Part shown: positions 1-61,862 of the stretch, piece by piece
Numbering within the stretch: the first letter of the stretch is position 1
Layout: the number at the start of each line of letters is the position of its first letter
Source: a virus
Direction: 5' to 3' (one strand)
IMG/VR virus record: IMGVR_UViG_3300045988_127579
DNA length: 64,000 nt
Position numbers and translations under genes: made by a program
The notes under the pieces: model-generated
The model's database searches: none
The model's input: the letters and a program-made list of their open reading frames with translations, nothing else
What the model was told of the DNA's origin: nothing

Positions 1-588
1 ATTGATAAAAACATAATAGAGAATTCGGGCGAAAGTCTTTTAAGAGAAACAAATAATTTTTAGATATTTATGACAATGATGAAAGAAAAAGAGATGGTCG
101 ATAAAAAACAAGCATCTATGTAGGTTCTTACATTATTGTTTCCAAAGCAAAATGTTTTATTTACCCCTAGGTCAATTGTTTTACAAGGTGACCCACAAAT
201 AATGATTGACGAAAGCAATTTTAATATATTATAGGAATATATTAAAGAAATATTTTGTTTTAAATCTAATGCTTCGCAAGAAATGGGATTTAATCCTGGA
301 AATGCGGCCGCGAAAAAGATAGCCGATAAATTAATGCGAGGTAGACAACGTGTCGCTGAATTAAACGGCACGGCTAATGCTAGTATATTTAGTTAGTATC
401 TTTCAATGCTCACTATAGGTCTTGATTCAATGTCTTTACAGGATTTAATGGATTTAACAATGTTCCAACTCTATGACCTTGTTGAAAGATATCAACTTTA
501 TATTAATTGGGATATTGATATCCGGTCTAGATTAGCTGGCGCGAAGCCTGATAACAAGCCGGATAACTGGATGAAAAATATCCATTAA
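1..588 (+). CDS. 5'-truncated late gene, head-assembly/scaffold-like, containing 4 in-frame TAG codons (at 61, 121, 232, 394)
   Basis: Frame 1 is open from position 1 to TAA at 586-588 if TAG is sense. The ORF-track entry 406..588 is its C-terminus. The product is helical and acidic, and the gene sits immediately upstream of the major structural gene. Confidence 0.5.
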
Positions 589-612
589 ATTTTTTAAGGA
601 GGAAAAAAACCT

Positions 613-1596
613 ATGAAATTTGGTGTACGCGAAATTTGCGATGTCGTTTTAAAGGCAAAGGCTAATCAAAAGATTGGTAATAAGCAATTTTATAAGAATG
701 AGCCAGTTATTTATTTCGACACTTTAAAGACTTCCAGTATGGAAGGCGCTGCTACCACCGTATACGCACAGGGCGGTCGTGGTAATACTAACTTAGTCGC
801 ATGGGAAGGCGAGCGTACTGTTACCTTCACAATGGAAGATGCTCTTATTTCTCCTGAAGGTTTCATGATTCTTTCCGGTGCTGGTCTTGTTGAGGCTTCT
901 GCTAACAATAAGATTAAGCAACATATTACTCAAACTGTTGATAAGACTAAAGACATTGTCCCTGCTAATACTGGAAAAGACATTAAAACTGATGGACTAA
1001 TCATCCCTGTTTCTTATGCACCTTATCTTGATAAAGAGCATAAAGATGATGACTATGTTTATGTTTTCTTTATGAAAGATGGCGAAATTATTTCTGAGCC
1101 TTATTTAGCACACGAAGGAGTTGCTGAGGGAGACGCCGGTTTTAGTGTTACTGTAAAAGGATTTGATCGTGCTACTGGAGCGGCTTATACCGCTAATGAC
1201 TTGGAAGCTGATTATGCTAAATGCGACTCTGTAATGGTTGATTATTACACTGAGCGTGAATCTGGTGCTAAGCAGATCGAAATTACTGCTGATAAATTTG
1301 GTGGTAACTATTATCTTGAAGCTTCTACTTTATTCCGTAACCAAGACGGCGTAGATATGCCTGCTGAATTTATTATTCCTAACTGTAAGATTCAGTCCAA
1401 CTTTAACTTCACAATGGCTTCTTCTGGTGATCCTTCCACTTTCACCTTTACTATGGATGCGTTCCCTGATTACACTCGTTTCGATCATAGTAAGAAAGTT
1501 TTGGCTGCTATTCAGATTATTGAAGAAGACGAAACTGTTGACAACGATATTCGTAGAAAGACCGCTGCTAATAGCACCATTGCTGTTGGAGGCTAA
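613..1596 (+). CDS. major virion structural protein (capsid or major tail), 327 aa, TAG-free
   Basis: Strongest RBS in the window (TAAGGAGG, 8 nt before ATG). No TAG, TAA or TGA in 327 codons. Position follows a scaffold-like gene and precedes a small basic protein, an SPP1-like layout. Confidence 0.6.
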   Translation: MKFGVREICDVVLKAKANQKIGNKQFYKNEPVIYFDTLKTSSMEGAATTVYAQGGRGNTNLVAWEGERTVTFTMEDALISPEGFMILSGAGLVEASANNKIKQHITQTVDKTKDIVPANTGKDIKTDGLIIPVSYAPYLDKEHKDDDYVYVFFMKDGEIISEPYLAHEGVAEGDAGFSVTVKGFDRATGAAYTANDLEADYAKCDSVMVDYYTERESGAKQIEITADKFGGNYYLEASTLFRNQDGVDMPAEFIIPNCKIQSNFNFTMASSGDPSTFTFTMDAFPDYTRFDHSKKVLAAIQIIEEDETVDNDIRRKTAANSTIAVGG

Positions 1597-1601
1597 TTGA
1601 T

Positions 1602-1784
1602 ATGGTTGTAAAAGGTCCAGTAAAATATACTCCACCAAAACAGCCTAAAAAAGAATCTACTAAAAAGCAGCCAAAAGTAGAAAAGGCTGTAAAGAAAGAG
1701 CTTATCGAGCCTATTGAGGAAGTAATTCTTCAAGAGGAAGATGAGGTAAGTAAGATTTTATCTGAATTAGATAAAAAAGATTAA
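1602..1784 (+). CDS. small Lys-rich protein (60 aa), possibly head-associated
   Basis: GGAGG RBS; ends TAA; followed by a terminator. Confidence 0.5.
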   Translation: MVVKGPVKYTPPKQPKKESTKKQPKVEKAVKKELIEPIEEVILQEEDEVSKILSELDKKD

Positions 1785-1789
1785 TTAAT

Positions 1790-1822
1790 GGGAGAGAATA
1801 GAAATATTCTCTCCCATTTTTT
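1790..1822 (+). terminator. rho-independent terminator
   Basis: Stem GGGAGAGAATA / TATTCTCTCCC with GAAA loop, followed by ATTTTTT. Confidence 0.7.
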
Positions 1823-1845
1823 CGTTATGTGGAAAAGGAGACAAT

Positions 1846-2916
1846 ATGATTATTAAATCAGATGGAAGTATTAAAGGTTCTATTATTAATGAAACTGAAA
1901 AATAGATTATTTAGGATATGAATACTGCTACTTAGTAGGATTGGGGACCTTTATTACAAAAATGGTCGATGGATATTTATAAATGGTTAAATAAAGCAAG
2001 GGCTTATGTAGTATCTCAAAATTCTGTTATAGAAAAATTATCTTCTTCTTTAATTATAACTAATAAAACTGGAAAACAAGAAATTAATTTAGTTGAAATT
2101 AATACTATGAAAAAAATGAGAATTAGTAAAAAAAATATTAATAATAAAGAAATTTTATGGGAAGGATATAGATTATTAAATGAGATAGGTGAAACTTTAC
2201 GTGGAGAAGAAATAATGTATTCTATTACTTTTACTAAAACTGGTGAAACTATAAGTAATTCTAATGAAGTATATACTTGGACTGTTCCAATGAGTGAGTT
2301 TTTTAATTTAGTTAGATTTAGTGAAACTCGTATAACTTTAAGAGATTCAAGTGCTATATATAAAATGATGTAGAAACAAATTTAGAATGATGAAAAAGAT
2401 ACTATGATTGAAAAATGGACTGAATAGAAAATTTAGGATTATGCTTTATTTAATGACGAAGTTAGAAATAATCCAAATTGGGAAAAATGGCATAAAATTA
2501 ATGAAGGTAATATGCTTGAAAGTTATTTAAGACTTTTGAGAAATGGTGGAACTGTATAGGATAGGAATAAAGTAAAAAAAGATTCAGAATATTGGCATAA
2601 ATTAGGAACTGCGGTTTCTTCTACTATGAAGTCTCCTGATGCATTCTTTAAAGGCGGAGATATTGATAACGAACAAATTAAAGGATTACACGCTTCGGTT
2701 ACTAATATTAATACTTTAATGTTAAACTTATAGAAAGTTTTTGCTATTTTAAAAAATGCTAAAATTAATGAAGAAGTTTTAAATAAATATTATAAAAAAA
2801 GCGGATTAAATTTAAAATAGTAGCAAAAAGAAGTAGAACAAGAAGTTATAAATAAATTAACTGATTTCTTTACAAGTAAAATTGATAGAAATATAAATAC
2901 TATAATTGAATTTTGA
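1846..2916 (+). CDS. late structural protein (about 356 aa), TAG-dense with about 14 in-frame TAGs
   Basis: RBS AAAGGAGA + ATG at 1846. Frame 1 runs without TAA/TGA to TGA at 2914-2916. The ORF-track entry 1969..2373 is an internal piece. Confidence 0.6.
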
Positions 2917-2941
2917 CTAAATAAAAAATTTTTTGTATAAT
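2913..2941 (+). promoter_or_regulatory. sigma-A-like promoter: TTGACT, 17-nt spacer, TG-extended TATAAT
   Basis: TTGACT at 2913-2918, spacer AAATAAAAAATTTTTTG, TATAAT at 2936-2941. It shares the AATAAAAAATTTTTT spacer with the early promoters at 63.3 and 63.5 kb. Confidence 0.5.
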
Positions 2942-2968
2942 ATAATAAAGAGTAAAAGGAGGCTAATT

Positions 2969-3502
2969 ATGGCTAAAATTTCATATAATAAATTAGGAAT
3001 TACTAAAGATGAACTTAATAGAGTTCAAACTGTTGAATATAATGATTAGACTATTGAGGTAAAGCAATATCTTCCTATTGCGGAAAAGAGTGAATTGATT
3101 ACTCGTGTATTGAATAATTCAGTGGATGAAAATACTGGATATTATAATCTTTTAAAGTTAGATATGAATCTTGGTTTAGAAATTGTTTATGCTTATAGTA
3201 ATATTTCATTTACCGAAAAACAAAAGGAAGATCCAATGAAGCTTTATGATATGCTTAATGCTTCTAAAGTACTTAATCTTATTATTGGCCTTGTGCCAGA
3301 TGGAGAATTTTATTATTTAAATAAAACAACTCATGAGATGGCTAATAATATTGTGACATATCGCAACTCTGTAATGGGTATTATGGAAGCAATTTCTACT
3401 GATTATAGTAATTTAGATTTGGATGCAACAGATATTCAAAAGAAGTTAAATGATCCAGATAATATGGCTTTATTAAAAGATGTGCTTACTAAATTGGGCT
3501 AA
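2969..3502 (+). CDS. putative tail assembly chaperone (about 177 aa), with an in-frame TAG
   Basis: RBS AAAGGAGG; frame 2 joins ATG 2969 to the ORF 3095..3502. The call rests only on its position immediately upstream of the tape measure gene. Confidence 0.45.
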
Positions 3503-3547
3503 TTAAATTAGTTAATAATATTATTTTTTGAAAAATAATAGAGTGAT

Positions 3548-3590
3548 GGGGATAAGAGTATAATTGCTCTTATCCCCGTTTTATTTTTAT
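3548..3590 (+). terminator. rho-independent terminator
   Basis: Stem GGGGATAAGAG / CTCTTATCCCC followed by GTTTTATTTTT. Confidence 0.65.
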
Positions 3591-3624
3591 ATAAAGATAA
3601 AACTTGGAGAGAAAGGAGATTTCT

Positions 3625-6600
3625 ATGGCTAAACAATTAAATAGTTATTAGGTTAATTTACAGTTTACTGCTGATTCTAAATAGGCTCAACAATAGTTGA
3701 AAGATTTACAAGAATAGCTTAATAATTTAACAAAAAATGTTAACAGCTATGGTAATTTAAGTTTATCGCAAGAAATTCAAAAAGCCTTGCCTTATGTTAG
3801 TGAATTACAAGGGATGTTAGTTACTTGTCGAACAGAGGCGGGGACTATTGATTTAGGAAAATTTAATCAATCATTAAAAAAAAGTGGAAGAACTATTAGT
3901 GAGTATGGAGATTAGCTACAAATTTTAGGTAGAGAAGGCGAATAGGCTTTCGCTAATTTAGCAAAATCTATTTCTACGGCGGAGTTGCCTTTAAAAAGAA
4001 GTAACGCTTTATTAAAAGAATTTGGAACTACTTTAGCTAACACGGCTCGTTGGCAAATATCTTCAAGTATTTTACATGGCTTTATGGGAGCAGTATAGTC
4101 TGCTTATTATTATGCTTAGGATTTAAATAAATCTTTAAATAATATTCGTATTGTTACCGGGCAAAGCGCCGATTAGATGGCAAAATTTGCAGTTTAGGCA
4201 AATAAAGCCGCTAAGGAGTTAAGCACTACAACTACTAAATATACTGATGCAGCCTTAATTTATTATCAGTAGGGTTTAAATGATGAATAGGTAAAAGAGC
4301 GCACTGATATTACTATAAAAATGGCAAATGTTGCTCGTGAAAGTGCTGAAATTGTTTCAGACCAAATGACTGCCGTTTGGAATAACTTTTATGATGGAAG
4401 TTAGTCATTAGAGCATTATGCTGATGCTATGGTGCGTTTAGGTGCAGATACCTCATCTAGCTCTGATGAGATTGCTGGCGGTCTGGAAAAATTCGCTGCA
4501 GTTGCTAATACAATTGGTTTAAGCTTTGATAATGCAGCAGCTGCACTGGCTACCATTACTGCTACTACTCGTCAAAGTGAAGACGTTGTAGGTACTGCTT
4601 TAAAAACGATTTTTGCTCGTATTCAAGGTTTAAAACTTGGTGAAACTTTAGAAGATGGCACTACATTAAATCAATATTCATAGGCTCTTGAAAAAGTTGG
4701 AATTAATATCAAAGATTCTAATGGTGAATTAAAAGATATGGATAATATCATCGAAGAGATGGGCAATAAATGGTAGAATATTGATAAAGATTAGCAAGTA
4801 GCTTTAGCGCAATAGGTTGCGGGTGTTCGTCAATATACTCAATTAATTGCTTTGATGGATCACTTTGATTATTATAAAGAAAATCTTGCTAGGGCACAGA
4901 GTGCTGATAGGTCTCTTCAAGAACAAGCTGATATTTATGCAGAATCTTGGGAGGCTGCTAGAGATAGAGTTACTGCTTCTTTAGAAACTATTTATGACTA
5001 GCTATTGGATGATAAAGCTTTTATTCAATTAACTAATATTTTTGCAAAATTATTAAATGCTATTAGTTAGTTAATCAAAGCGTTAGGAGGACTTCCTGGA
5101 GTTTTATCCATTATTGGAACTATTGGATTTAAAGTATTTGGGAATGATATTACAAAATCTATTCAACGAATGATGTATAATATTAAAATTTCTTCTAAAA
5201 ATGGAATAGATGAAATTGTAAAAATGCGTCAAGAAGCTAATAATAAATTAAGATCTATTATGGCAGATAATGTTGATTAGGGGCCTGATTATTCTACTCG
5301 CAGTGATATTTATACTTAGTAGGCTAATTTACAAGATGTTTTAATTTAGAAACAAAGAGAATTAATTGCTTAGGGAAGTTAGTTGACTGAAGAAGAATAG
5401 GCGTAGGCTAAATTTATTATAGATATTAATGAAAAACTTGGAGAACGAGCAATTAAGAGTGCTCAAGATTTAGAACAATAGCAAAAAATAACTCGTCAAT
5501 TAGAAAGATAGTTTGAAACGCAAATTAGGATGAAACAAGGGAATGTTTAGGATTATAGATCTTAGATAAATTCCACTAAACAGAATTTTGTTTTATCTAG
5601 CGTTTTAGATGATTTCCAAAGTGCTACAAGAGATATTGAAAATTTAGATGAATTAAAAGAAAAACTCCAACAGGTTCGTGATAAAACTTCTTAGTTAGGG
5701 ATGTCTTTTAATAATTTAGATAATATTCTTAATGGGACTTATAATACAACTGAAGAATTTAGAAATTAGTTAAATAGTTTAATTACTATTACAGAAAATG
5801 AAGCTAATTCAGCATTTTCATAGTTACGAAGCACTTTAGAAGGTACTTAGATGACTGAAGAACAGATTGAAAATACTATTAATTCACTACAAGATTCATA
5901 TTCTTCTATGGTTATTGAAATTCTTAATAATGTATAGGCTACTAATAGAGCCACTGATGCTAATCAAGAATATATTAATACTATAAATTCTTTTAAGGGA
6001 GTATTGCCCTCAGCAGAAGCAGGAGTAGCTTCTTTTGCTTAGGGATTAAGCAGTATTGCTATGGCAATAACTTCTATAAAAGGAATTGTAGATACATGGA
6101 ATAATGATGAAATTGGTATTGGAGATAAATTACTTTCAACCGTAACTGCTTTATCTATTGCCTTACCCTTATTAATGAATTCTTTAAATAAGACTTCAAT
6201 TGCTAATATGGGAATGTTATCTAGTTCTTTAATGACTGCTGTTGGATTAAATGGATAGGCCTTAGAACAAGAAGCGTTAAATTTAGTTACTTTAAAAGGA
6301 GCAGCAGCTTTTAAATTAGCAATTAAGGTATTTACTAAATCTTTAGGGCCAATAGCTTTGGTTGGTGCCGCTATTGGTGCGTTAGTGTTTATTATTAAAT
6401 CTGCTATAGATGAATATAATAAAGCAGATAATAATTTAAAATCTGCTAGTGAAACAGTAGAAAAATTAACTGAAAAATACAATGAATTAACTTCATCAAT
6501 TGAAGAATTTAAAAATAAAGCTAATGATTATACTACAGCCGTTGAGGCGCTTAATGGGTTAGATAAAAAAACATAGGAGTATACAGATTCTTTAGAATCA

Positions 6601-9600
6601 GCTAATGAGAAAGCTAAAGAACTAATTGAAACTTATAGATTATGGGACAAATATGAAATTAAAGATGGCTTAATTGTTTTTGATACAGGAGCTATTGAAG
6701 AAGCTCAAAAGAAGATTAATGATACTGCAAATAATATAAAAGTTCTTTAGTAGAGTGCTAAAATTGATGTTGAATCTGCTAAAAAAGAAGTTTCTAATAC
6801 TGATTTAAGTAGAAATATTGGTAAAGTAAAGCGAGAAGGAAACTCTGGCACAATTACAAATGGTGAAATTGAATTAATTACTCAATTTGCTATTGAAGCA
6901 TAGAAAGAAAGTATAAAAACTCATAAGAGTTAGGATGAAATTTTAAGACAAAAATTAGAAGAAAATACAACGTTTTATTCTGAGAGTATTGATAAAATTA
7001 TGGAAAGTAGTGATGCTTTCTTTAATTTAGCAGATAGTATTACTGAAGCCACTAAAGCTACTGATTATTATAGTAATGAAATATTAAAAAGTAAAAATAT
7101 TCAAAATAATTCTGGACGAGTTGAAAAGATTACTGATAATATTGTTTTATAGGATTATATTTATGCTGCTGAAGCAGGATATTAGCGTCAAATTCTTAAA
7201 AATAACGGTAAAGATTTTACTAATTTAACTTTGCCAGCTCATAATAATAATGCTGATTTAAATATAAATAATGATAAAGAATTAGCAAAAGCTTATGCAA
7301 GAGAAGTTTTAGGATTAACAGAAGAAGAGTTAGGTCAATATATTTATAGTGGTGGGACTGGAAAAGGAACTTTAAAGAATATAAACGGAACTGTTCTTTT
7401 TGAAGACGAAAATGATTCTTATATGCGAGAATAGATCGCTAGGAAAAGAGCAACAGATGAAATTTTTAATTCTTTAGAAAATAATGATTCTTATAATTTA
7501 GGAGAATTTGATAAATCTATTGAAAGCCTTCTTAAGAAAACAGAATTTTTTGATAAAACATTTGGTGCTAATTTTTCATAGGCAATTCTTGATAGTCTAG
7601 CAAATGCCGAAAGTGGTTTAGATTTAACTTCTATTTTATCTGAATTGTCTCCTGATTAGGTTGAAGAATTAAAACAACTTGGATCAGATGGATTTGCAGA
7701 AGCTTTAGGATTAACTAAAGAACAAATGGAATCTTTAGGATTAAATGATGGAGAAGCTTGGCTAGAAGGATTCGAAAATAGTTTAAATAATTATAATCCT
7801 GATAATTATAATTAGAGAATTGTTGACGCTGCCAAAACGGGCGAAAAAAATGCTTCTAATTTAATCAGTGGATTATAGAGTGGAGATGTTACTCAAGAAA
7901 ATATTTCTTCTAATGAAGATTATTCTAACTTGATATAGCAATTAGAAATAATAAAAAAACAATATCCTGAATTAGAATCTGCGGCTTTAGAATTATCTCA
8001 TACTTGGAATGTTGGTAGTCAAACTTATTATGAAGCTTTAGAACAAGTCCAAGATAAAATGGCTGAAATCAAATTAAATGATTTAAATAAAGATTCAGAT
8101 AAACTTCTTAAAGAACTTCAACAAAATTTATAGATCATAAATAAAAAAGAAGGAGTAAATGTTACTGTAGAGGCTGATCTTAGTAAATTTAAAGATTCTA
8201 TGGATGAATTAGCGGATTAGCAATATAGTATAAATGTTGAAGTTCATGGCCAAGCAGAACAAGAATTTAATAGTATTACGAATGCTATTAAAGATATGAA
8301 TACTTAGGCTTCTAAAATTGGTCCTAATTATACTGTTGCTGCTGATGACATTCGAGAATTAAATAATGTTTTTCCTGGCATTATTGAAGGAATGACAATA
8401 GCTAAAGATGGATCAGCTAAATTAAAAGAAAGTGTTGTTAAAGATTGTTTTGATGCTGCTAAAGCAGAAATTGCTGCTGACGCTGAAGCTACTGTTGAAT
8501 AGTTAAATAATTAGGCTACTTTATTAGAAGCGAAAGCCGTAAATTATAAAAATATAGCTCATTTAGCAGAAATTCTTGCCACAGCTGAAAATTTAAGTGC
8601 TCAGGAGTCTGCTGCTATTAGAAGTAGTATTTCTGGTAATTTAGCTGAATTAGAATCAAAAAATAGTAAAGATACAACTGATACATAGGCTGATAATCAA
8701 GAAATTGTTGCCAATTCTTCAAAAGATAACGCTAAAGTTGTAGCGGAAAATTGGTAGAAAGCTTTTAAATCAGCGGCATAGAATTCTGTAGATTTTGCTA
8801 ATACTGCTATAAATAATATGAAAAAAGCAGTTAGCGGAAAAGGAAAAGGAAAACTAGAAGGAAAATTCTAGGTCGATTATAAAGGGTCAACGGGTGTTAG
8901 CGCCGAAGCAAAAGTCTTAGAAGATGCATAGAAGACGTTAGATGAAGCATTAGCAGATGGAGAAAATACTTCCAAAGAAACTTGGGCTAAAATTGCAGCT
9001 ACTTATAATTCCCTTTATGCTTCTACTATGGCATAGGCGAATGATATTCGCGGAATGATTGCTTCTGTTGGAGCATCAACTTTAGAAACCAATAATGCTT
9101 TTAAAAATCTTGGAAAAAATGCGTCTGGGACTGCTAAAGAATTACAAAAAGTCGCTAAGCGCTATCATGAAATAACTCGTGAAATTCAATATTATCAAAA
9201 ACTTTTAGATAAATTAGCGGATAGTAAAGATAAACTTTATGGAAAAGCTAAAATTGATAATATAAATCAAGAAATTGAAGCTAATAAAAAATTAATTGAT
9301 TTATAGTCTTAGTTGTATAATTTAATTTTAGCAAATGTGGCTGTAGACCGGCAGGAAGTCCAAAAGCAGTTTGGTGGATAGGCAATTTTTAATAAGGACA
9401 CATTAGAAATTGATAATTATACTACTTTATATAATAAAGCTACTACTGATAAACAAAGAGAAGCTTTAGAACAATATGAAGAAACTTTAGATAAATTAAA
9501 AGAGCAGGAAAAAGCTTTAATTGATTTAAAGAATACAGTTCAAGAATTACATTATGAAAAATTAACTTATGAAGTTGAAGTAAAAATTCAATTAGATGAA

Positions 9601-11937
9601 AATGATACTAAAAAATTAGAATATTATTTTGATAAATTAAGTGATAATATTTATAAAGCTGCTGAAGCTCTTGGATATTTACAAGGTCAATTTGATCCAG
9701 TAATTAGCCAATTAGGAACTTATGAAAATTTCTATGGTTAGTTAAACAATGCTTATTCTAATGGAGAAATTTCTCAAGAAAATTATATTGAAGGCTTACA
9801 AGATGTATATGATAATACATTAGATAATTTAAATGCTTTGTAGGATTTAGATAAAGAAATGCTTGAATATTATGGTAATACTATAGATTTAGCAAATGAT
9901 GAATTATCTAAATATACAGATCATATGGAGCATTTAACTAGTGTATTGGATCATTATTGTTCTATTATTACTTTGTTAGGTAAAGACAAAGATTATGATA
10001 AAGTTTTATCAGTTTTGAATGGAACTGCTTAGACTAAGAAAAATAATTTTGATACTTCTAAACAATGGTATGAAAGCTTGAAGCGTGAACGTGATGCAGC
10101 AGCCGCAACTTTAGCCAGTTCAACCGATGAGGCTGAGCGTGAAGTGCTTCAAAAGAATTATGATGCTATATTAGCTGCATTCGATGAAGCGGAAGAAGAT
10201 ATGCTTTCTAAAGCTGAAGAATATGGTGAAGCATTAAAAGAAATCCTTACTACAAAGATGGAACAAGCTGCGGATGAAATGAATAAGCAATTAAGCACTA
10301 CCAAAGTGAGTATTAATGGTAATAACTTTAATATTTCCGGTTGGGATGCTTTAAATGATGCTTTGGATAGAATGTCTTCTTACCAAGATGAATATTTAAC
10401 AAAAACTAATTAGATTTATGAAATGAATAAACTACTTAATAATGTTAATTAGGCTATTGATAAGACAAATAATCAAGCAGCTAAAAATAGATACCAGCAA
10501 TTTACTAAAGAAATTGAGTAGTTAAGAGATAAAGATAAATTAAGTCAATTAGAATTAGAAATTGCTTAGGCTAAATATAAAGTGCTTGAAGCGCAAATCG
10601 CGTTAGAGGAAGCTCAAAACGCAAAATCCACAGTTAGATTACAACGTGATAATGAGGGTAATTTTGGTTATGTGTATACCGCAGACCAAGAGAAAGTAAA
10701 TGATGCGCAATAGGCTTTGGCGGACGCGGAAAATGATTTATATAACATTCGCCTTGATGCGACAAATAAATATGGTCAACAAAAACTTCAATATGAGAAA
10801 GAGTTGGCTGACAAACTTGCGGAACTTAATTAGAAAGCCGCGGAAGATGCTGTTTACCGTGAGACTACATATCAGCAAGAACGTGCGTTAGTAATTCAAC
10901 AATATACTGATTTAATTACTACTGCTGGAAATCTTTATGCGAAAGCTCAAGAAGAGGATAGTAGAGTCGTTCAAGACGCTTGGGTAAATTCTTTTGATAT
11001 TATCAAAGATAATAGTAATAGTTGGAAAGATACTATTACTGAAAACACTAATATTATCAATGATACATTTAAAGAATGGCAAGATAGCATGGATGAAATT
11101 AGTAAAATTGTTGGTGATGATTTAAAAGATACTCAATAGAAAGTTAAAGATGTTACTGATGAAAGTAATAAACTTTATCAAGAAGTATCTAATAAAGTTA
11201 TCCCCGCTCTTGAAGGTGAGTTAAGTTCCGTTCGTAGTGCCACTGAAGCTTGGGCACAACATCGTCAGCAATTACTTGATACTATTAGAGCTTATGAAGA
11301 GCTTTTGAACGCCATTCAAGCGACATTGCGCGCTTAGAGTGGATTTGGTAGCGATAGTAGTAATTCTTCAACAAGAGTTGATTGGTCTGAAAAAATGGGT
11401 CAAGTTGAATATGGTTCTGATAAATATAATGAATATTATCAAAATCGTGAAGATGTTATTAAAGGAGGATATGACATTAAAACAGCTACAAATGCTCGTG
11501 TTAATGCTTTTTATCAAAAAGGATTGACATTACCAATTACCCGCAATGGAAAAACTTATACTCATTTTACTGATATTCCTGATAGCGTTTGGAAACAATT
11601 AGTTGGGTTTAGAAGTGGCGGCTATACTGGCACTTGGAATGATGGTGGAAAATTAGCGTTCTTACATTAGAAAGAATTAGTTCTTAATGCTGATGACACG
11701 GAAAATATGTTAGCTTCTATCCAATTAGTTAGATAGATCGCGAAACAATTAGATTTCAATAGTCAACAAATTTCTACTCTTTCTTCTTCTGGATTTACTG
11801 TTAGTTCTCAAGATGGAACATTAGAATAGAATGTTAGAATTGAAGCTAATTTCCCGAACGCAACTGATAGATACGAAATTCAAGAAGCATTTAATACATT
11901 AGTTAATGTAGCTTCTCAGTATGCCAATAGAAAATAA
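3625..11937 (+). CDS. tail tape measure protein, about 2770 aa, with more than 100 in-frame TAG codons
   Basis: RBS AAAGGAGA + ATG 3625. All six ORF-track pieces (4429, 6358, 7231, 9055, 10078, 11395) lie in frame 1. The segments I spot-translated contain TAG but no TAA/TGA until TAA at 11935-11937. The translation is tape-measure-like, helical and Gln/Ala-rich (for example LIYYQQGLNDEQVKERTDITIKMANVARESAEIV). Confidence 0.85.
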
Positions 11938-11941
11938 AATT

Positions 11942-11980
11942 AAGGGTGAAGTCTTATAGGCTTCACCCTTTTTCTTTTTG
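11942..11980 (+). terminator. rho-independent terminator
   Basis: Stem AAGGGTGAAG / CTTCACCCTT followed by TTTCTTTTT. Confidence 0.7.
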
Positions 11981-12052
11981 GGTAATTATATTGAATAAAA
12001 CTAATTAATTTTTTAGAAAATTATAGAGTAATGAGTAAAAGGAGGGATTATT

Positions 12053-15000
12053 TTGGCTGATAATGCACTAAATATTCAAGAAAGTTTATGTCAAGCAATG
12101 AGTATTATTGCCAATTCAAGTGTTGATAAAGTTAAATTTGATAGTACCATTGAATGTACTATTATTGACGCAACTGATAAACTTATTGGTAAGTATAAGG
12201 TCAAAAATGAATCTTATGCGGAATTTTATGCTTATTCCCAAATAACCACTTATAACAAAGGCGATAAAGTGTATGTATAGATTCCAAAAGGAGATTATAA
12301 TAGCACTAAATTTATTGTCGGTAAAAAGACAGATAAAAATGAAAATAAACCATATAATTTTGTCAATCCTTTTAATACTTTTATTGATTTAACTGGTAAT
12401 TTTTTTATTGCCAAAGATAATAATAAAGAAATTTGGAGTATCTTAGCTAATGGTAATGAAGAGGAAATTGAGATTACTCCAAATGGCGGAATTACCTTTA
12501 CTGATGAGCAATAGGGATTTACGCGATTGGGGCTGCGTGCCGATTTCCGCGCCTGGCTTGAAACATTCGGTGTAATAAGTGGTAATTATGGATTAAAAAT
12601 AAATATATATGGTATTAAAGATGATACTGCGGATAATATTAAAAAAATAGAAGCAAGTATCAAAAATAATGGAGAAACCCCTTTAATCGCATCCATTGAT
12701 TTAGATACTAATGACATGTATGGCAATCCCTATAATTTTGAAGGATATTATTCTCAAGAAATTGTTATTGATACTAGCGCAGTAGCTAAAATATATAATA
12801 TAAAAATATTTTTATATCAAAAAGATAATTTTAAAGATAGTAATAATAATTTAATTAGTTATGCCAATGATTTCAATATGTCAATTCCGCCTAATAATAT
12901 CTTTGTAAAAGATATATATATGGGATTAGGTATTTCCGCAGATGAAATAGAAAATGAATATGTAAGACTGTATTCATTAGATGGAAGTACTTATGTAATT
13001 GATGATAAAGGTTAGATTGATTCTAAAACTATTAAATTGAAATGGGTTCATTTTGATGAAGATGGCAATAGAACTCAAATAACTGAACATAAAAAAGAAG
13101 ATACATTTGAAGTTCGCTGGTATGCGTATGAATTTGGAGCACCTTCCGCGGACGAATATTCTGGTGTCTATTGGACTGCGATTGAAGATAATAAAAATAA
13201 TTTTTATTATTAGCTAAAACCGCGCTCTAATAAAAATCAAGAATAGGTTAAAGTAATTATTTTATATAATGGAAAAGTTTATAGAAGTAATATAATTACT
13301 TTTAATAATGAAAAACAAGTTCCTAATGATGCGACTATTGATAGTTTAAATGCTTTGTCTATTCACTGTGAAGATTAGACTAATGGTAATTATTTAATTT
13401 ATAATTAGGCTAATTATTTGATGAATAGATCAGATGGAAAGATTAGTCGTAAATTAACTTTGCATTTTGATTCTAAGACTTATGCTATTAATAATGGTAT
13501 AATTGGTAAAAATTAGGATGGAGAAAGTAAATTAGTTGAAGCTTAGAGAGTAATTTGGCAAATTCCTATTAAAAATACTATGCTTAATTTTGGTATTAAA
13601 GATGATGGAACTGATGCTACTTATAAAGAAATTATTATTGATTTAACTAATGAAAACGTCAATGTTTCTCCTGGAGAATTTTCTTTAAATTATACTATTA
13701 ATACTTTTTATAGTAGTAATAAATCTAATAATACCGTAATTGCTAAAGTAGAAAAAGATGGTATTGTTTATACCTCCATTAAAGATTTCACTTTTGGATA
13801 GGTAGGAACTAATGGCACTGATTGTACTTTGGTAATTGATATGATAGCTCACGAGAATTTAAATAATAAAGTATTTACTGCTATAAAAAGTGGAGTAAGA
13901 GATAATTATACTTTTAGAGCTTAGTTATATGATAATGAAGGTAAAGAAATTACTAATTTTGAAAAATGTAATTGGACTTGGAGTTTTATGGCTGGATCAA
14001 CGGTTAATAATGTTGATTTATAGAATATTAATAATTAGAATTGTGTGTTAAGAGTTAATACTACAAACTCTATAATGAGTAATTTAATTATTTTGTAGGT
14101 AAAATTATCTGGTTGGGGAGACTATGATTTAACTGCTTACTATCCAGTTCCTATTACAACTTTAGATAATACTTATATAAATGGTCCAACAGAGGTAATT
14201 TATTTAAGTAATGGTGAACCTACATTTTCTAAAGAGCCTTATAAATTATTTGTAAATGGCGAAGTAGATGAAATTGCGACTTGGAGTATTTATTCTAGTA
14301 ATTCTAATGATGCTTTTATCGGTAAGATTAATTATAATGAAGATAAAAAAGAGTATAGATTAAGTCCTATGAGTTTTTATGTTGATGGAGTAAGCGTTTA
14401 TGGAGTCCAAGGAAAATAGGGAAATAAGATAGTTTGGACGTAGCCTATTTTAGTATTATAGAATAAATATCCATCTGCTATGGTAAATAAATGGGATGGA
14501 AAATTTTATACTGATGTAGAAAATAATTTTTTAGGTGTAGCTTAGATTGCTGCAGGTAAAAAAGATAAAAATGCTAATACTTTTACCGGAGTATTAATAG
14601 GTGATTTTGGAACAAAACAAAATGCAGATTCAAGTATTTCTTATAATACTGGGGTTTATGGATATAATAATGGATATCAAGTTTATGCTTTAAAAGATGA
14701 CGGAACTGCTACTTTTGGTAAATCTAGCACAGGATAGATTATAATTAATGGAACTTCAAGTATTATAGAATCTAAAGATTTTGAATATACTTATAATGAG
14801 TCTGGAGCTAGTGTAATAACAGGGTTAAGTTTAGATTTATTAAATGGTAAAATTTATGCTTAGTCTGGTACTTTTAGTGATAATATTAAAATTAATTATA
14901 ATGGTTCTACGGGATAGCCTTGGTATATTTAGTATGGAGCGGGAGAAAAATCATTAAGTGATATATTAAATGCAATTGGTAGCGCTGCTGCTGAAGCTAA

Positions 15001-15370
15001 AAGTGCCGCTAGTGCGGCGGGGGCTGCTGCTACTAAAGCTCAATAGGCAGCAGATGCAGCCGCGGATGTAGCGGAAACAGCTGCTTCAATTTCTATAGTA
15101 GCTAGCAATGCTGCGTCTAATGCATAGAGTGCGGTAGATGATTTAAGTTATTTATCAAAAATTTTGAATTATAAAAATAGTAGTAATATTTATTTAGGTC
15201 CTTCTGTTGAATATTCTTCTACTCCCAATTTAACTATTTTTAATGGCACAATTGGCTTAATGGGAGGAACTGGTAATTATCTTAATGTGACTGATAGGTC
15301 TATCTATTTACAAGGTCCCGTTGTAATAAATGGTTCATTGACTCTCAATGGAAAAGAAATAACAGGTTAA
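12053..15370 (+). CDS. large tail/baseplate protein (about 1105 aa), possibly an extended distal tail protein; TAG-recoded
   Basis: RBS AAAGGAGGG + TTG 12053. Frame 2 links ORFs 12053, 12527, 13580 and 15164 through about 30 TAGs with no TAA/TGA until TAA 15368-15370. The C-terminus is Ala-rich and coiled. Confidence 0.7.
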
Positions 15371-15392
15371 ATTAAAAAGGAGAAAAAGGAAA

Positions 15393-15569
15393 ATGAAAGA
15401 ACAAGATATTAATTTTTTAAAAGTTTTATACAATACTCTTTCTTTAGTATCAACTAAAGGAGAAGATACTATTCTTATGGGAGAGTGTTTAAAACAATTA
15501 AGAGATTTTACAAATAGATTAGTAGATCTTCAAGAGGAGAAGAATAACGAGAATAATTAGGAGGGATAA
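15393..15569 (+). CDS. small hypothetical protein (58 aa)
   Basis: RBS AAAAAGGAGA; ATG 15393; one TAG; ends TAA. Confidence 0.4.
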
Positions 15570-15570
15570 A

Positions 15571-18462
15571 ATGGTTAATAAATTATATCCACCTATTATA
15601 TCTGGAACTTTACCAGCATTTGTTGGATAGGAAATTACTATTCCATTTCAAATGAATCGTGCAGTTAGTATGGTAGAAGTTTCAGGATTATGTTATATAA
15701 TTAAAACAGTGTCAAGCAATGTCGTAATTGCTTAGGGAACAACCGCGGATTTTACTCCAAGCAAAGTCCGCGGTTGTTTGGAACAAGGTTCTATTACTTT
15801 TAATATAAATCTTAAATCAATTACTAATAATGGAAAACCTATTCAATATAAATTAAATCCAGGATAGTCTTACAAAATTCAGTTAGCATATATTAATACT
15901 AATGGAGTAGTTGGATATTATTCTACGGTTGGTATTGCTAAATGCACGACTAAGCCCGCAGTTTATATAAAAGGTTTTGAAGATAATTTAGTAGGAATAA
16001 ATAAAACAAATTTTATTGGAGTATATAGCCAAAAAGAAAAAAATGATGATATTACTGAAAAAGTTTATTCATATAGATTTAAAGTGTATGATGAAAATGG
16101 TAATATTTTTGCTGATAGTGGAGAGCAATTACATAATTCAATTAATGACACGGAATTAAATGAAAGTTATGATAGTTTTGAATTAAATAAAGAATTACAA
16201 AAAAATAAAAATTATTTTATTCAATATTCTATAACTACTATTAATAACTATGAAGCAGAGAGTGTTAGATACCAAATCATTAATAGAGAAACTATTAATC
16301 CAGAATTACAAGCAACCCTTTCCGCTACTATGGATGAAAATAATGGATATGTAAAAATTAATTTAAATGGAATCCGCGATAAAAAAACAGGGTTAGAAAT
16401 TCCTGCTACTGGGGCTTTTGCTTTATTAAGAGCCAGTAGCGAAGATGATTTCAATACTTGGAATACAGTATTAAAATTTAAATTAGTTGGTGAAACTCCA
16501 TCAAGAGAATTATATAGAGATTTTACTGTCGAGCATGGGTTTAGTTATCAATATGCGGTTCAGCAATATAGCGACGAAACTGCGGTCCGCAGCAATAAAA
16601 TCTTTTCTAATACTGTATATAGTATTTTTGAAGATAGTTTTTTATATAATAATGGATAGTTATTAAAAATAAGATTTAATCCAAAAGTAAGCAATTTTAA
16701 AATTAATACCCTTGAAAGTAAAACTGATACTATTGGAAGCCAATATCCTTATATTTTTAGGAATGGAAATACTTATTATCACGAATTTCCTATAAGTGGT
16801 TTAATTTCTTACCTTATGGATGAAGACCATTTATTTATAGGTAAATTAGGCGATGATGAAATTAAAGATTTTACATCAACTGATTTAACTAACTATAATA
16901 TTAATATAGAACGTCAATTTAAAACTAAGGCTTTAGAATTTTTAACTGATGGAGAACCTAAATTATTTAAATCTCCAACAGAAGGAAACTTTATTGTGCG
17001 TTTGTTAAATGTAAGTTTAAGCCCTGAAGATAAATTAGGACGTATGCTTCATACATTTAGTGGAACTGCATATGAGATTGATAAAGTTAGTTTTGATAAT
17101 CTTACTACTTATGGATTTATTGACGCGGACCCGCCCGAGAGCGAAATTCTTAAATGGGATAGTATTTCTTTTGATGGATGGTATAAAATTAATGGGTATA
17201 TTAATGATGTAAATACCTATATTGATAATTTGAAAGATGAAAATCTGACTTAGGTAGAAATTAATAAATTACAAGCAAATAAACAAACTTGTTTAGATAA
17301 TTTATTACAAACATTAAGTTTTTATCCTATGTTTGAATTACTTTATGACGGAGATCATTATAGTTTATAGACCAAAGATATTTTAGCTAATTCTCCTGCG
17401 ATAACGATTCGATTTGAAGGTTTTGCTCCTGGAGATAAGTTCAGCATTGATGGAGAAGAAATTGTTATTGGTATTACAGGAGCTTATTTAATAGATCATG
17501 TTGCTCCAATCTATAGTGTTAAAGTAGTAGAATTATCTGACGTGGGCTTATAGCAAGGAACTATTGTATATTCTTATTATGGCAAGCAGGCAAGTAAGTT
17601 TGATACTATTAATGATATTCAAGTTGCGGATTTGCCTTTAGAGCAATATTATGGAACTGAAGGTAATATTTTAAATCTTTATAATGATGATTTTAAATAC
17701 AAAGTAACATAGATTTATTTCTTGCGTTTTACTAAGCGTGATGTATAGAAATTATATACAAGTAATAAAGTTAATTTTTATACTACTCCCGGCAGAGCAA
17801 TTAGTGAAGAAGAAGGAGAAAAAGATCATTCTGTAGAAATTAAACGTGTAGATTTTGATCCTACCTTAATTTATCATATCTATTTAGTAAGTCAAACTGA
17901 AGAACAAGATTACTATATTGATGGATATACTAAGAAAGAAATTTATGATTCTGGCGTATTAGTTAGTGAAAAGAATTGGGCTTGTAATATTAGAATAAAT
18001 GAAGATGATAAACAAATTATTGGTATTGATTAGAAGAATGAATATTAGATTAAAGACTTAACTGATATTACTTCTATTGAAATCGATCCAGGCGTTTTAT
18101 GCGAATTATCAGTTCAACGTCAAGAAGTAGTTTACTCTTTTGAAAATGATAATCAAACTACTTATAGAATTTTTAATGGTTAGAATTATACTACAACTAC
18201 AATTTATCAATTAAAGCAAAATTGGTTAAGGGCTAAGAAGGCTTTAAAAGATTTTAAAGAATTAGAGCAAGATAAAAGCAATCCTGATTTTACTAAAGAT
18301 GATCCATTTTATAATGTAAATTAGAGTAATATTTAGACTTGTATAAAAAATTATAATAATAAAGTAGCAGAATTACAAAAGATAGTTGATGAAACATATA
18401 CTTTATTTATTGATACTTTAAGAAAGGCGGTAGAGGATTATGAAGACTCAAAGACAATATGA
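15571..18462 (+). CDS. large tail/baseplate protein (about 963 aa), TAG-recoded
   Basis: RBS AGGAGGG; ATG 15571. Frame 1 links ORFs 16084 and 16816 and continues to TGA 18460-18462, overlapping the next gene's start. Confidence 0.7.
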
Positions 18463-40522: not shown

Positions 40523-40551
40523 ATTATATCACAAATTTTCTTTTTTGTCAA
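40523..40551 (-). promoter_or_regulatory. consensus sigma-A promoter: TTGACA, 17-nt spacer, TATAAT
   Basis: On the - strand: TTGACAaaaaagaaaatttgtgaTATAAT; drives gene 39956..40489. Confidence 0.6.
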
Positions 40552-41023
40552 GTTTTAAATTAATAATGTTCTAATTGCGAGAACCGCGCAAAGGTAAAGT
40601 AATATCTCTTTCCTTTTGGATATATGGTCCATCAATTAGATAATCAGCAGTTTTTAGTATATTCTTAATTCTAATATTATTACTATTCTTTAAATCATCA
40701 TAAACATATCCAGTCCATATATATATTTTAATGTTTGGATATATTTTTTTAATTTCAGTAATAACTAAATTAGTTAAAAATTCGTTTTCAGGGCAGAGAG
40801 GTTCTCCACCCATAATACAAAGATTACGCGCAACATTATTCGCATTAATAGCAGTAATTAATTCATCTAATACTTTATTAGTAAATTCTTTGCCACCATT
40901 AAAATCCCACGTTTCAGGATTCTGACATCCTTCACAATGGTGCGGGCACCCTTGTGTAAAAAATGATACACATACTCCGGGTGCCGCCGCCAAATCATTC
41001 TTTATAATTCCTGCATATTTCAT
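40529..41023 (-). CDS. nrdG: anaerobic ribonucleotide reductase activating protein (radical SAM); canonical end is a TAG followed by a 14-codon extension to TGA
   Basis: CxxxCxxC motif CPHHCEGC. Overlaps nrdD by 4 nt. The ORF-track end at 40571 is a TAG. Confidence 0.8.
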
Positions 41024-61586: not shown

Positions 61587-61862
61587 TCAATCCTCATTAC
61601 TTAAAGTATATCCGCTTAGATTATGCCCAAGAGAACGAACAAAACAATCAAGTTCATCAATAAATACCATACTGCCTTTTGGATAATTCCCATTTATATA
61701 ATCATAATATGAAATAAAATCAATTCCAATAATTCCATATCCTTCTGACTTAATTCTCATAGCATCAGGATTAGAACAAGCAATAATAGCATTTTTCTCT
61801 TTGGCTAACAGTATTAATCTACTCGTTTTTCCTGTTCCACGTTTATCAATTATTCTATACAT
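61587..61862 (-). CDS. small P-loop protein (91 aa)
   Basis: Motif GTGKTS; ORF ending TGA. Confidence 0.45.
   Translation of the reverse strand: MYRIIDKRGTGKTSRLILLAKEKNAIIACSNPDAMRIKSEGYGIIGIDFISYYDYINGNYPKGSMVFIDELDCFVRSLGHNLSGYTLSNED

Follow-up and report, generated by a model that had tools for sequence, protein, structure and literature searches.

A 2,770-codon tail tape measure gene with 79 in-frame TAG codons in a predicted code-15 siphophage of the human gut

We describe a gene at positions 3625-11937 of a 64-kb stretch of phage DNA (the window, by which we mean the whole stretch that was analysed). With a probability of about 0.9, this gene encodes one tape measure protein of 2,770 residues in which TAG is read as glutamine through a tRNA(CUA) of the phage lineage, a low-GC (30%), SPbeta-like, code-15 siphophage of the human gut with a genome of ~193 kb. 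In the mechanism that we propose, the lineage would encode an amber-suppressor tRNA(CUA) in a tRNA cluster outside the window, and this tRNA would insert glutamine at the 79 TAG codons of the tape measure. Without the suppressor, translation of the tape measure would halt at codon 9, so that this protein and other tail proteins would be made only once phage decoding is active. The recoding may therefore serve to time the expression of late genes. The features on which the argument draws are collected in Table 1.

Table 1. Features of the tape measure locus and the candidate suppressor tRNA of close relatives
Feature	Position	Strand	Basis
Tail tube protein, YomU_Tube family	613..1596	+	phrog_2729, 1.9e-55; PF27173 precomputed on identical protein
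189-aa protein directly 5' of the tape measure, 1 TAG	2933..3502	+	phrog_30570, function unknown
Terminator-like hairpin, 16-pair stem, 4-nt loop, then T-run	3545..3590	+	hairpin 3545-3580 by scan
Ribosome-binding site AAGGAG	3613..3618	+	6 nt 5' of ATG 3625; read from sequence
Predicted tail tape measure protein gene, 2,770 codons, 79 TAG read as Gln, TAA stop	3625..11937	+
PhageMin_Tail (PF10145) domain, residues 193-400	4201..4824	+	Pfam E=1.3e-29
Hydrophobic Gly/Ala/Leu-rich stretch, ~residues 797-930	6013..6414	+	read from translation, descriptive
Conserved C-terminal region, residues 2641-2770	11545..11934	+	similarity to L001
Terminator-like hairpin, 13-pair stem, 3-nt loop, then T-run	11942..11980	+	hairpin 11942-11970 by scan
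First tail gene 3' of the tape measure, 1,105 aa, 24 TAG, TTG start	12053..15370	+	similarity to L001
tRNA(CUA) in close relatives	L341 2832-2904; L339 1286-1358; L329 263-335; L333 773-845		ARAGORN

Reading frame, product and gene neighbourhood

An earlier note on this DNA had proposed a frame of about 2770 codons, running from ATG 3625 to TAA 11935-11937. This frame was borne out: it is 8,313 nt long (2,770 sense codons and a stop) and contains 79 TAGs, no TGA, and a TAA solely at 11935. From base composition, the probability of finding no TAA or TGA in 2,769 codons is ~1e-84, and the remaining five frames of the same interval hold 117-409 TAA and TGA codons each. The TAGs are more widely spaced than the one per 15-30 codons that had been claimed (mean spacing 35 codons, median gap 25). 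Similarly, the ORF fragments obtained under the standard code do share frame 1, as had been said, but they number seven rather than six at a cut-off of 60 aa, and two out-of-frame ORFs are also present at that cut-off. With a TAG as early as codon 9 and no TAG-free run exceeding 126 codons, no meaningful product would be expected without suppression. The base following TAG (G in 33, A in 22, T in 16 and C in 8 of the 79) is distributed much as it is after all codons, which indicates no special TAG context. These observations support 3625-11937 as one continuous gene that exists only with TAG as a sense codon; codon reassignment through a suppressor tRNA is a better name for what had been termed readthrough.

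The nature of the product is supported by several kinds of similarity. An HMM search of the table-15 translation gave tape-measure families in both Pfam and PHROG, as had been predicted. The PF10145 match scores 104 bits against a gathering cut-off of 33.2 and covers the profile from 1 to 201 of 201 while spanning seven in-frame TAGs (codons 216, 222, 260, 353, 384, 390 and 397); 13 PHROG tape-measure families were matched, the best at 1.1e-65. With residues 1-1000 of the 2,770-aa protein as the query, 377 homologs were found at E<=1e-5, and identity to the tape measures of cultured phages (e.g. Bacillus, Enterococcus) is only 23-30%. The protein is rich in A, L, E, N, K and Q. Its conserved C-terminal region is 48.6% identical to residues 1410-1542 (the C-terminus) of the second half of the tape measure frame in the related locus L001, and the peptide quoted in the earlier note lies at residues 272-315. 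Hydrophobic stretches are common in tape measure proteins and, at the textbook value of ~1.5 Angstrom per residue, 2,770 aa would correspond to a tail of roughly 400 nm. The Pfam search gave no lytic domain in the protein. Thus, PF10145, the PHROG families and the homologs uphold the earlier reading of a typical tape measure, and support the prediction that 3625-11937 encodes one of the PhageMin_Tail / TP901 type.

Upstream of ATG 3625, the closest in-frame stop is TAA 3598, and the alternative in-frame TTG at 3604 is without a ribosome-binding site like AAGGAG. Terminators had been placed before (3548-3590) and after (11942-11980) the gene, and a hairpin with a T-run was indeed found at both sites, the 3' hairpin beginning 5 nt past the TAA stop. 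Terminator-like sites number 12 in positions 1-16000, compared with 5.5+/-2.5 in shuffles. The two flanking hairpins would be expected to act as terminators or attenuators, modulating transcription.

The gene sits in a tail module, 3' of the tube gene and 5' of further tail genes, and the order is the same in L001. The product of the small gene directly upstream is 47% identical to that of the same-position gene in L001, and from its position it would be a tail assembly chaperone. On the other side, an AGGAGG site precedes the TTG start of the next gene, whose product is 27% identical over ~1,000 aa to that of the gene after the L001 tape measure; further on, 18440-20746 matches the PHROG tail family phrog_1887 (5.5e-11). 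The annotation of the downstream tail genes, and of an ORF of 2,581 aa, comes from PHROG or precomputed matches only. Contig L004 matches the window at 100% identity over 11.6 kb, and precomputed Pfam matches on it identify the SPbeta-type virion gene set YonD, YonB, YomW, YomV and YomU (PF27290, PF27364, PF27256, PF27211 and PF27173), the first four of these lying further upstream of the tube; L001 has the same set. The tape measure gene belongs to an SPbeta-type tail module. Furthermore, the window encodes a DnaE-type DNA polymerase III alpha at 43985-47962 (phrog_405, 8e-213), whose orthologue contains PHP, DNA_pol3_alpha, finger and HHH_6 domains and whose nearest cultured matches are in Enterococcus EF1-type and Bacillus phages. 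By its virion gene set and this replicase, the phage would classify as an SPbeta-like, phAss-related gut siphophage. The terminase gene falls outside the window.

Selection on the frame among related loci

Across 77 complete related loci, the frame delimited by TAA or TGA measures 2,678-3,404 codons whether it contains 0 or 110 TAGs, and ten of the 77 have the entire frame with no TAG at all. When the window is compared with the same-length strain L192, code 15 makes 75% of the 591 codon differences synonymous, as against 15% and 10% in the off-frames, the nucleotide differences fall 131/57/477 on the three codon positions, and the synonymous share lies between 66% and 91% in every 500-codon bin. 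Purifying selection thus acts across all the TAGs of the frame. The earlier claim that the gene exists only with its TAGs read through is sustained by both comparisons, that of length among the relatives and that of synonymous change against L192.

These data also bear on two other explanations of the interval. With 79 stops under the standard code, it could be taken for a decaying pseudogene or an assembly artefact, but all 79 are TAG, and the third-position bias and synonymous excess denote ongoing selection. The same sequence was, moreover, assembled independently in several samples (L004 at 100%, L006 at 99.99% and L005 at 99.98% identity), and exact copies of the tube protein occur in at least 45 collection blocks; we consider this explanation refuted. 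It is also very improbable that the frame comprises two or more shorter products, with some of the TAGs acting as real stops. Selection is uniform along the frame, and the ten TAG-free relatives keep it whole. The locus that might suggest such a division is L001, where a single TAG stands at codon 1652 of 3,236 and the gene caller places a new start 42 codons further on, but this 42-codon gap is itself in frame and free of TAA and TGA.

Among family members, the number of in-frame TAGs forms a series of 0, 1 (L001), 6, 15-16, 21-36, 43-72, 80-88 and 98-110, along which the total of glutamine codons is roughly constant. The 'low-TAG' loci L199 and L210 have their TAGs at the very end or the very beginning of the extended frame, and these two are probably standard-code. 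The sparse members (1-6 TAGs) might represent genuine early intermediates in which a suppressor is already needed, although we hold this to be rather doubtful. If it were true, the order of events in the code change (tRNA gain, first TAGs, spread from late to replication genes) could be reconstructed and tested. In this one orthologous gene of 8-10 kb, the family provides a natural series of codon reassignment that is unusually fine.

Glutamine at TAG and the candidate suppressor tRNA

Four lines of sequence comparison show that TAG should be read as glutamine in the tape measure gene. In 120 homologs, Q is found opposite TAG more often than any other residue (28.6%, against a background of 6.9%), and the TAG at codon 216, inside PF10145, aligns to Q in all 120. 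When TAG was masked as X, eight standard-code tape measures had Q opposite TAG in 22.6% of cases and opposite CAA/CAG in 22.2%. Among 68 distinct relatives, those with more CAA+CAG per 1000 codons have fewer TAG per 1000 (r=-0.83, p=4e-18, slope -0.79). Finally, CAA is the commonest exchange partner of TAG among 13 strains (83 columns), followed by CAG (35), and 17 of 20 TAG gains or losses among same-length strains involve CAA or CAG.

This evidence makes it highly unlikely that TAG is read as another amino acid, e.g. Glu, Lys or pyrrolysine. E and K are, after Q, the residues most often opposite TAG, but the whole spectrum, their shares included, is that found opposite CAA/CAG, and the column at codon 216 holds nothing but Q. 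Exchange is mainly with CAA and CAG, with which TAG also trades off in frequency, despite the two base changes that TAG to CAA requires. As to pyrrolysine, ARAGORN does label the tRNA described below 'tRNA-Pyl', but it prints this for any CUA anticodon, and no Pyl machinery was seen in the window. The body of that tRNA is not clearly Gln-like by overall similarity, being no closer to tRNA-Gln than to others (the best match in a small set is Asn, at 68%). Its amino-acid identity therefore rests on the alignments and on features of the acceptor stem, which we take to act as in E. coli. Every suppressor in the family has a weak or mismatched 1:72 pair, plus G73, and the T-loop, ATCGACA, is unusual.

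The candidate decoder comes from close relatives. No tRNA of any kind was found within the window, in a walk outward from 20 kb upstream of the portal to 30 kb past the right end of the window, or in ~146 kb of close-relative sequence outside two tRNA clusters. The first cluster (Thr to Cys) includes no tRNA with a CUA anticodon, nor did a sensitive Rfam search to the left of its tRNA-Thr reveal one. In the second cluster, ARAGORN at default settings finds a 73-nt tRNA(CUA), which scores 52 bits with the Rfam tRNA model (gathering 29). In the genome of the window, this tRNA would be expected to be of the type TGAGGGGTAGCATAGCGG...CCCCTCCGC and to lie beside tRNA-Tyr and tRNA-Val. In five close relatives, a well-scoring tRNA(CUA) occupies one and the same position in the cluster, and more distant TAG-recoded relatives have one or two each. 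Where they align with the window, the suppressor-bearing relatives share 91-96% identity with it, and they are mosaic within the tape measure; one of them, L341, has an overlap of 98.2% identity with the close relative L300. By synteny, the tRNA(CUA) site would lie ~45 kb beyond the right end of the window, which on the window's own contig (ENA ERZ27229700 k119_103379; 193,118 bp, with the window at about 87,196-151,195) would place it close to the contig end or slightly beyond, or close to the start should the contig be circular; our reach on this contig extended over the window and ~10 kb either side, short of that site. We infer that this genome, too, encodes the tRNA(CUA) of the close relatives and that TAG is decoded by it.

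With the gene itself as described, suppression might instead have another source: a suppressor of the host, interference with release factor 1, or a non-canonical tRNA that escaped detection. The tRNA-free sequence listed above and the limited reach on the phage's own contig are consistent with this, as is the finding that a TAG suppressor was detected in no more than 40% of the TAG-recoded genomes studied by Borges et al. (bioRxiv 10.1101/2021.08.26.457843). However, the expected site falls outside the sequence read, and the presence of a tRNA(CUA) in five close relatives, and in distant recoded ones, makes such a source unlikely.

An 89-nt 'tRNA(CUA)' at L174 17694-17782, which appeared at a lowered ARAGORN threshold, has two T.T acceptor-stem mismatches and a weak D-arm, lies inside a conserved ORF and was rejected. 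Low-score tRNA(UCA) and intron-containing 'suppressor' candidates from the lowered-threshold run were likewise disregarded. As a separate observation, relatives also carry tRNA(UCA) or tRNA(UUA).

Recoding in the window and in known phages

Over the whole window, reading TAG as sense gives 20,756 aa in ORFs of 100 aa or more, compared with 10,668 aa under the standard code, so that half of the coding capacity is lost in the latter case. All of the long ORFs can be closed by TAA (31) or TGA (12), and TAGs occur inside the PF10145, NrdD, RecJ, Dda and DnaB matches. TAG density is 16.2 per 1000 codons in the plus-strand block (17 ORFs, mostly tail genes) and 4.1 in the minus-strand block (26 ORFs, replication genes included). 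Because conserved replication genes are also interrupted (NrdD at codon 218, RecJ by six TAGs), a strict lock on late genes only would be too simple. In a few minus-strand ORFs (40529-41023, 57696-58046 and 43417-44022), a TAG stands 6-39 codons before the closing stop, and these TAGs could be real early-phase stops.

The tape measure has 28.5 TAGs per 1000 codons, 2.3x the density of other late genes and, across the family, 1.85x that of neighbouring genes. TAG makes up 39% of its glutamine codons and 35% of those of other late genes (the tube gene has 0 TAG, 5 CAA and 4 CAG). The high count is thus explained by length and glutamine-richness, and we have dropped the idea that this gene is specially loaded with TAG; the earlier note had seen in it the cleanest demonstration of the recoding, but it is not special in its genome.

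No new mechanism is involved, as earlier publications cover the reassignment, the suppressor tRNA, the bias in favour of structural genes and, for a related group, giant tape measures interrupted by TAG, and public gene calls already hold this ORF as a 2,770-aa product. The locus does serve as an annotation warning: the standard code breaks an essential 8.3-kb gene into fragments of at most 126 codons. In the phAss-1 record, similarly, the tape measure region is annotated as short hypothetical fragments.

The nearest known system is phAss-1 / Phassvirus, a human-gut, siphophage-type group that is related to Spbetavirus, reads TAG as Gln and has a DNA polymerase III alpha (PMC10607447; GenBank OQ749652, labelled 'Caudoviricetes code 15 clade' by NCBI). 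Its genomes, only three of which were described (Babkin et al., 2023; PMC10607447), contain genes for tRNA-Sup(CTA) as well as tape measure ORFs of 3,149-3,209 aa that TAG breaks under the standard code (PMC10607447). Our phage is like this group in its human-gut origin, SPbeta relationship, replicase and very long, TAG-interrupted tape measure. The relationship is distant, however: by tblastn, the phAss-1 tape measure region matches the window protein at 33% identity (E=5e-36), in the conserved N-terminal domain, and the genome is ~193 kb, against 133-138 kb in the phAss group. Phassvirus membership calls for more than ~70% genome nucleotide identity with the same synteny, and the phage falls outside it, with 33% protein identity, ~193 kb against 136 kb, and, when the locus was compared with the phage collection by megablast, no match to any record. 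The lineage of the window is, furthermore, far commoner in public data than Phassvirus.

Code-15 gut phages in general (crAss-like, Lak and 'gemstone' clades) are low-GC, infect standard-code hosts and carry suppressor tRNAs; their TAGs are concentrated in genes for structure and lysis, with few in those for replication, and standard-code and recoded phages occur together within one clade (bioRxiv 10.1101/2021.08.26.457843; PMC9523058). Peptides of crAss-like phages prove TAG=Gln in structural proteins, one of them tail-related (PMC9523058). The present phage resembles these in the denser TAGs of its tail block relative to the replication-bearing block and in relatives with 0-110 TAGs in one gene, but differs in that several conserved replication genes also carry TAG. 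With the TP901/PhageMin_Tail tape measures of standard-code siphophages, the gene shares its N-terminal domain, its position after the tube and a small gene, its great length and its Gln/Ala/Glu/Lys-rich composition; those genes, in contrast, are open under the standard code, and no lytic domain was detected here by Pfam. To the known TAG-to-Gln phages, this work adds one abundant human-gut lineage (~193 kb, SPbeta-like), in which relatives of a single locus span the range from unrecoded to heavily recoded.

A single open frame for a tape measure protein

The earlier note had described an 8.3-kb tape measure gene open solely under TAG readthrough, and this description is correct save for small details. 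A count of stop codons confirmed a single frame of 8,313 nt, about 2770 codons as claimed, from the ATG at 3625 to the TAA at 11935-11937 (+), with 79 TAG, no TGA and the terminal TAA alone; the proposal excluded any earlier in-frame TAA or TGA, and none is present. From base composition, the probability of finding neither in 2,769 codons is about 1e-84, and the remaining five frames of the interval hold from 117 to 409 TAA and TGA codons each. The closest upstream in-frame stop is a TAA at 3598. TAG first occurs at codon 9, and the longest stretch free of it has 126 codons; a spacing of one TAG per 15-30 codons, as had been suggested, is roughly right for the median gap (25) but not for the mean (35). 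Similarly, the standard-code fragments do lie in frame, but at a 60-aa cut-off they number seven, not six, alongside two out-of-frame ORFs. The terminators noted on either side of the gene were recovered as terminator-like hairpins with T-runs (see table).

An HMM search of the translation with TAG as Gln bore out the identity of the product. The Pfam profile PhageMin_Tail matched residues 193-400 over its full length (104 bits against a cut-off of 33.2; E=1.3e-29), spanning seven TAG codons, and 13 PHROG families labelled tail length tape measure protein were also matched (best 1.1e-65). With residues 1-1000 as the query, 377 homologs reach E<=1e-5; the top 120 score 1e-168 to 1e-229, and many span the entire query as unbroken ORFs. 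Window 3625-11937 is a tape measure gene, and it lies within a tail module.

Features of the window and of related sequences (L-numbers)
Feature	Sequence	Position	Strand	Remark
YomU-type tube protein	window	613-1596	+	
14-pair hairpin	window	1787-1818		terminator-like on both strands
356-codon ORF	window	1846-2916	+	12 TAG
Small protein in chaperone position	window	2933-3502	+	
Hairpin + T-run	window	3545-3590		terminator-like; upstream of tape measure gene
AAGGAG site	window	6 nt 5' of ATG 3625	+	
147-aa ORF	window	6039-6482	-	antisense to tape measure gene
Hairpin + T-run	window	11942-11980		terminator-like; downstream of tape measure gene
Large tail genes	window	from 12053 onward		downstream of tape measure
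Second giant ORF	window	25841-33586	+	27 TAG; stop TGA
NrdD, RecJ, Dda-like helicase and DnaB, with in-frame TAG	window	41020-43341, 52465-54213, 49004-50203, 56174-57706	-	family matches span TAG sites
ORFs with TAG near the stop	window	40529-41023, 43417-44022, 57696-58046	-	
GIY-YIG protein	window	61862-62875	-	337 aa; 4 in-frame TAG
73-nt tRNA(CUA)	L341; L339; L329; L333	2832-2904; 1286-1358; 263-335; 773-845		examples
RAGATH-33 RNA	L300; L302; L304; L314; L339	4854-4982; 5451-5579; 2909-3037; 2809-2937; 19594-19722		RF03102
UCA and UUA tRNAs	L113; L118	18090-18164; 18990-19074		PhoH-adjacent arrays
Long Rfam tRNA matches	L304; L317; L337	4118-4257; 4458-4641; 190-335		missed by ARAGORN
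39-45% GC region	L010; L170	1-4500; 10000-20306		close relatives

The neighbourhood of the gene has features of its own. The tube gene contains no TAG, its nine Gln codons being five CAA and four CAG; this has a chance of about 2%, its neighbours being TAG-rich late genes in which TAG makes up about 35% of Gln codons, possibly because codons that depend on a suppressor are avoided in the virion gene with the highest expression. The 14-pair hairpin follows the tube gene and a 60-aa ORF, and the hairpins at 1787-1818, 3545 and 11942 may jointly set the tube/chaperone/tape measure expression ratios. At 34 TAG per 1000 codons, the 356-codon ORF between the tube and chaperone-position genes is denser in TAG than any other in the window; it matches no family, and the 97%-identical IMG/VR strain 148355 has unrelated sequence in its place (L003 5130-6184). 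The second giant ORF (2,581 codons) is carried in public gene calls as a 2,581-aa product with no Pfam match. The antisense ORF, which lacks TAG, is probably spurious because the + strand frame has a strong codon-position signal.

That the frame is one gene, rather than several, was addressed with 80 related tape-measure loci from IMG/VR, the matched frame being extended until a TAA or TGA was reached. The 77 complete loci all have a frame of 2,678-3,404 codons, independent of TAG number; ten loci are TAG-free, and the others carry 6, 15-16, 21-36, 43-72, 80-88 or 98-110. For one relative (L001), public gene calls give two genes, divided at a lone TAG; the halves are in frame, the 42 codons between them hold no TAA or TGA, the total is 3,236 codons, and the window's protein aligns to both halves. 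Furthermore, L192, a strain with a frame of identical length, differs from the window at 591 codons, of which 75% are synonymous with TAG as Gln, versus 15% and 10% in the other two frames. The nucleotide differences fall 131/57/477 on codon positions 1/2/3, and the synonymous share is 66-91% in every 500-codon bin. By this synonymous excess, the position bias and the pattern across all bins, the whole frame is a single coding sequence under purifying selection.

The L001 locus (10001-19711, on a 134-kb contig of 35% GC) is broken by exactly one TAG, at codon 1652, and 13/13 neighbouring genes end in TAA. This lone TAG could mark recoding at a very early stage, a site of regulated readthrough or a true split.

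Meaning and distribution of TAG

Four measures concur that TAG stands for glutamine. Opposite the window's TAG codons, the most frequent residue in 120 aligned homologs is Q (28.6%; the figure is 41% at CAA/CAG and 6.9% for all columns together), and at TAG codon 216 it is present in 120/120. As a control for bias from entering Q at each TAG, TAG was masked as X and the full protein aligned solely to eight TAG-free relatives; Q then occupied 22.6% of cells opposite TAG versus 22.2% opposite CAA/CAG. Among 68 distinct relatives, TAG density falls as CAA+CAG density rises (r=-0.83, p=4e-18, slope -0.79), the sum of the three codons staying at 66+/-6 per 1000 codons. Finally, CAA (83 columns) and CAG (35) are the commonest replacements of TAG among 13 strains, and TAG is the commonest partner of CAA, though this exchange takes two base changes; in same-length strains, 17/20 TAG gains or losses involve CAA or CAG.

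Reading TAG as sense raises the content of ORFs of at least 100 aa in the window to 20,756 aa, versus 10,668 aa in the standard code. The + strand block (70 to 37,747; 17 ORFs, mainly tail and virion genes) has 16.2 TAG per 1000 codons, and the - strand block (37,877 to 63,836; 26 ORFs, including DNA polymerase III alpha, NrdD, Dda-like helicase, RecJ, primase and DnaB) has 4.1. The share of TAG among Gln codons is 39% for the tape measure, 35% for the other late genes and 11% for the - strand genes. As 39% is close to 35%, the high TAG count of the tape measure is due to size and Gln-richness, not special loading. TAG also lies inside conserved regions of NrdD (codon 218), RecJ (six sites), Dda-like helicase (codon 215) and DnaB (codons 23 and 59). 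These replication and nucleotide-metabolism genes need TAG decoding, and thus the recoding extends beyond late genes.

In three - strand ORFs a TAG stands just 6-39 codons ahead of the TAA or TGA stop; it might still end translation in the early phase of infection, with readthrough following later. The GIY-YIG homing-endonuclease domain is C-terminal in a protein encoded among the replication genes; strain L007 has a related gene at another position.

Suppressor tRNAs, lineage and host

ARAGORN and Rfam found no tRNA genes within the window. In close relatives the search, which covered sequence from about 20 kb upstream of the portal up to some 30 kb past the right end of the window, was also negative. 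Their first tRNA cluster, past a 598-aa gene, comprises Thr, Ser, Ser, Leu, a RAGATH-33 RNA, Gly, Lys, Met and Cys; a CUA tRNA is absent from it. The second, past a fibre-like 447-aa gene, comprises Arg, His, Ile, Pro, Val and Tyr together with a 73-nt tRNA(CUA), scored by the Rfam tRNA model at 52 bits (gathering score 29). Overlap identities are 98.2% between L341 and L300, a close relative, and 99.2% between L339 and L304. More distant recoded relatives have one or two tRNA(CUA) genes in the same array. Every one of these suppressors has a mismatched or weak 1:72 pair and G73, which in the E. coli system are acceptor-stem identity features of bacterial tRNA-Gln; overall similarity to tRNA-Gln was uninformative. 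The lineage's tRNA(CUA) would be the TAG decoder in the window's strain, and synteny with relatives would place it some 45 kb to the right of the window, close to either the end or the start of its 193-kb contig.

The RAGATH-33 RNA scores 123-127 bits (gathering score 120.4) and comes immediately after tRNA-Leu(UAA) in the phage tRNA cluster. UCA (opal) and UUA (ochre) anticodons occur in more distant relatives (PhoH 67-68% identical), suggesting that the broad family also includes reassignments of other stop codons. The long Rfam matches (140-184 nt) may be tRNA genes with an insertion or intron.

An ENA contig (ERZ27229700 k119_103379; 193,118 bp) is 100% identical to the window over 11.6 kb, and its public gene calls already give the tape measure ORF as a 2,770-residue PhageMin_Tail product. 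Close IMG/VR relatives, on contigs of 190-196 kb, are 91-96% identical over aligned stretches and mosaic within the tape measure gene. The upstream virion genes belong to the SPbeta families YonD, YonB, YomW, YomV and YomU. The exact tube protein recurs in at least 45 protein-collection blocks and the exact dUTPase-like protein in 233, and thus the lineage is common. Matches in the genome collection come from MAGs with the labels Clostridium, Eubacteriales, Oscillospiraceae, Acutalibacteraceae and Ruminococcus; the closest of all (97%) is to a 164-kb contig, assigned to an 'uncultured Mollicutes' bin, that probably represents the phage itself. A gut-dwelling member of the Bacillota is the likely host.

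In close relatives, about 15 kb upstream of the terminase/portal region is at 39-45% GC, versus about 30% elsewhere, with small ORFs and essentially zero in-frame TAG, a compositionally distinct module.

Comparison with known recoded phages

Gut phages with suppressor tRNAs are known to reassign TAG to Gln; it is likewise established that their structural and lysis genes are enriched in TAG and that one clade can combine different codes (bioRxiv 10.1101/2021.08.26.457843). In crAss-like phages the reassignment is peptide-confirmed, a tail-related protein included (PMC9523058). It has been proposed that recoding times late translation (PMC9523058; bioRxiv 10.1101/2021.08.26.457843), and here it could hold back translation of tail genes until the phage machinery is in place. 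This idea fits only loosely, because NrdD, RecJ, Dda-like helicase and DnaB also carry TAG in conserved regions.

The tape measure gene is real, single and selected, and TAG in it is Gln. As an instance of code 15 the locus is clean and well supported; it is of a kind already known, with practical value for annotation and little surprise for specialists. The most interesting by-product is the graded TAG load in one orthologous gene across the family, a series that might let the steps of a code change be ordered.

A known parallel is phAss-1 (GenBank OQ749652), of the proposed Phassvirus group; it and its relatives are human-gut, SPbeta-related phages that use code 15 and have two or three tRNA-Sup(CTA) genes (Babkin et al., PMC10607447), and read in the standard code, their tape measure ORFs (3,149-3,209 aa) are likewise 'destroyed' by TAG codons (PMC10607447). 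The window's tape measure finds a match in phAss-1 at 33% identity, in the conserved N-terminal domain. However, as megablast of the locus gave no nucleotide match in the phage collection, and the genome here is about 193 kb versus 136 kb, the window phage lies outside that genus.
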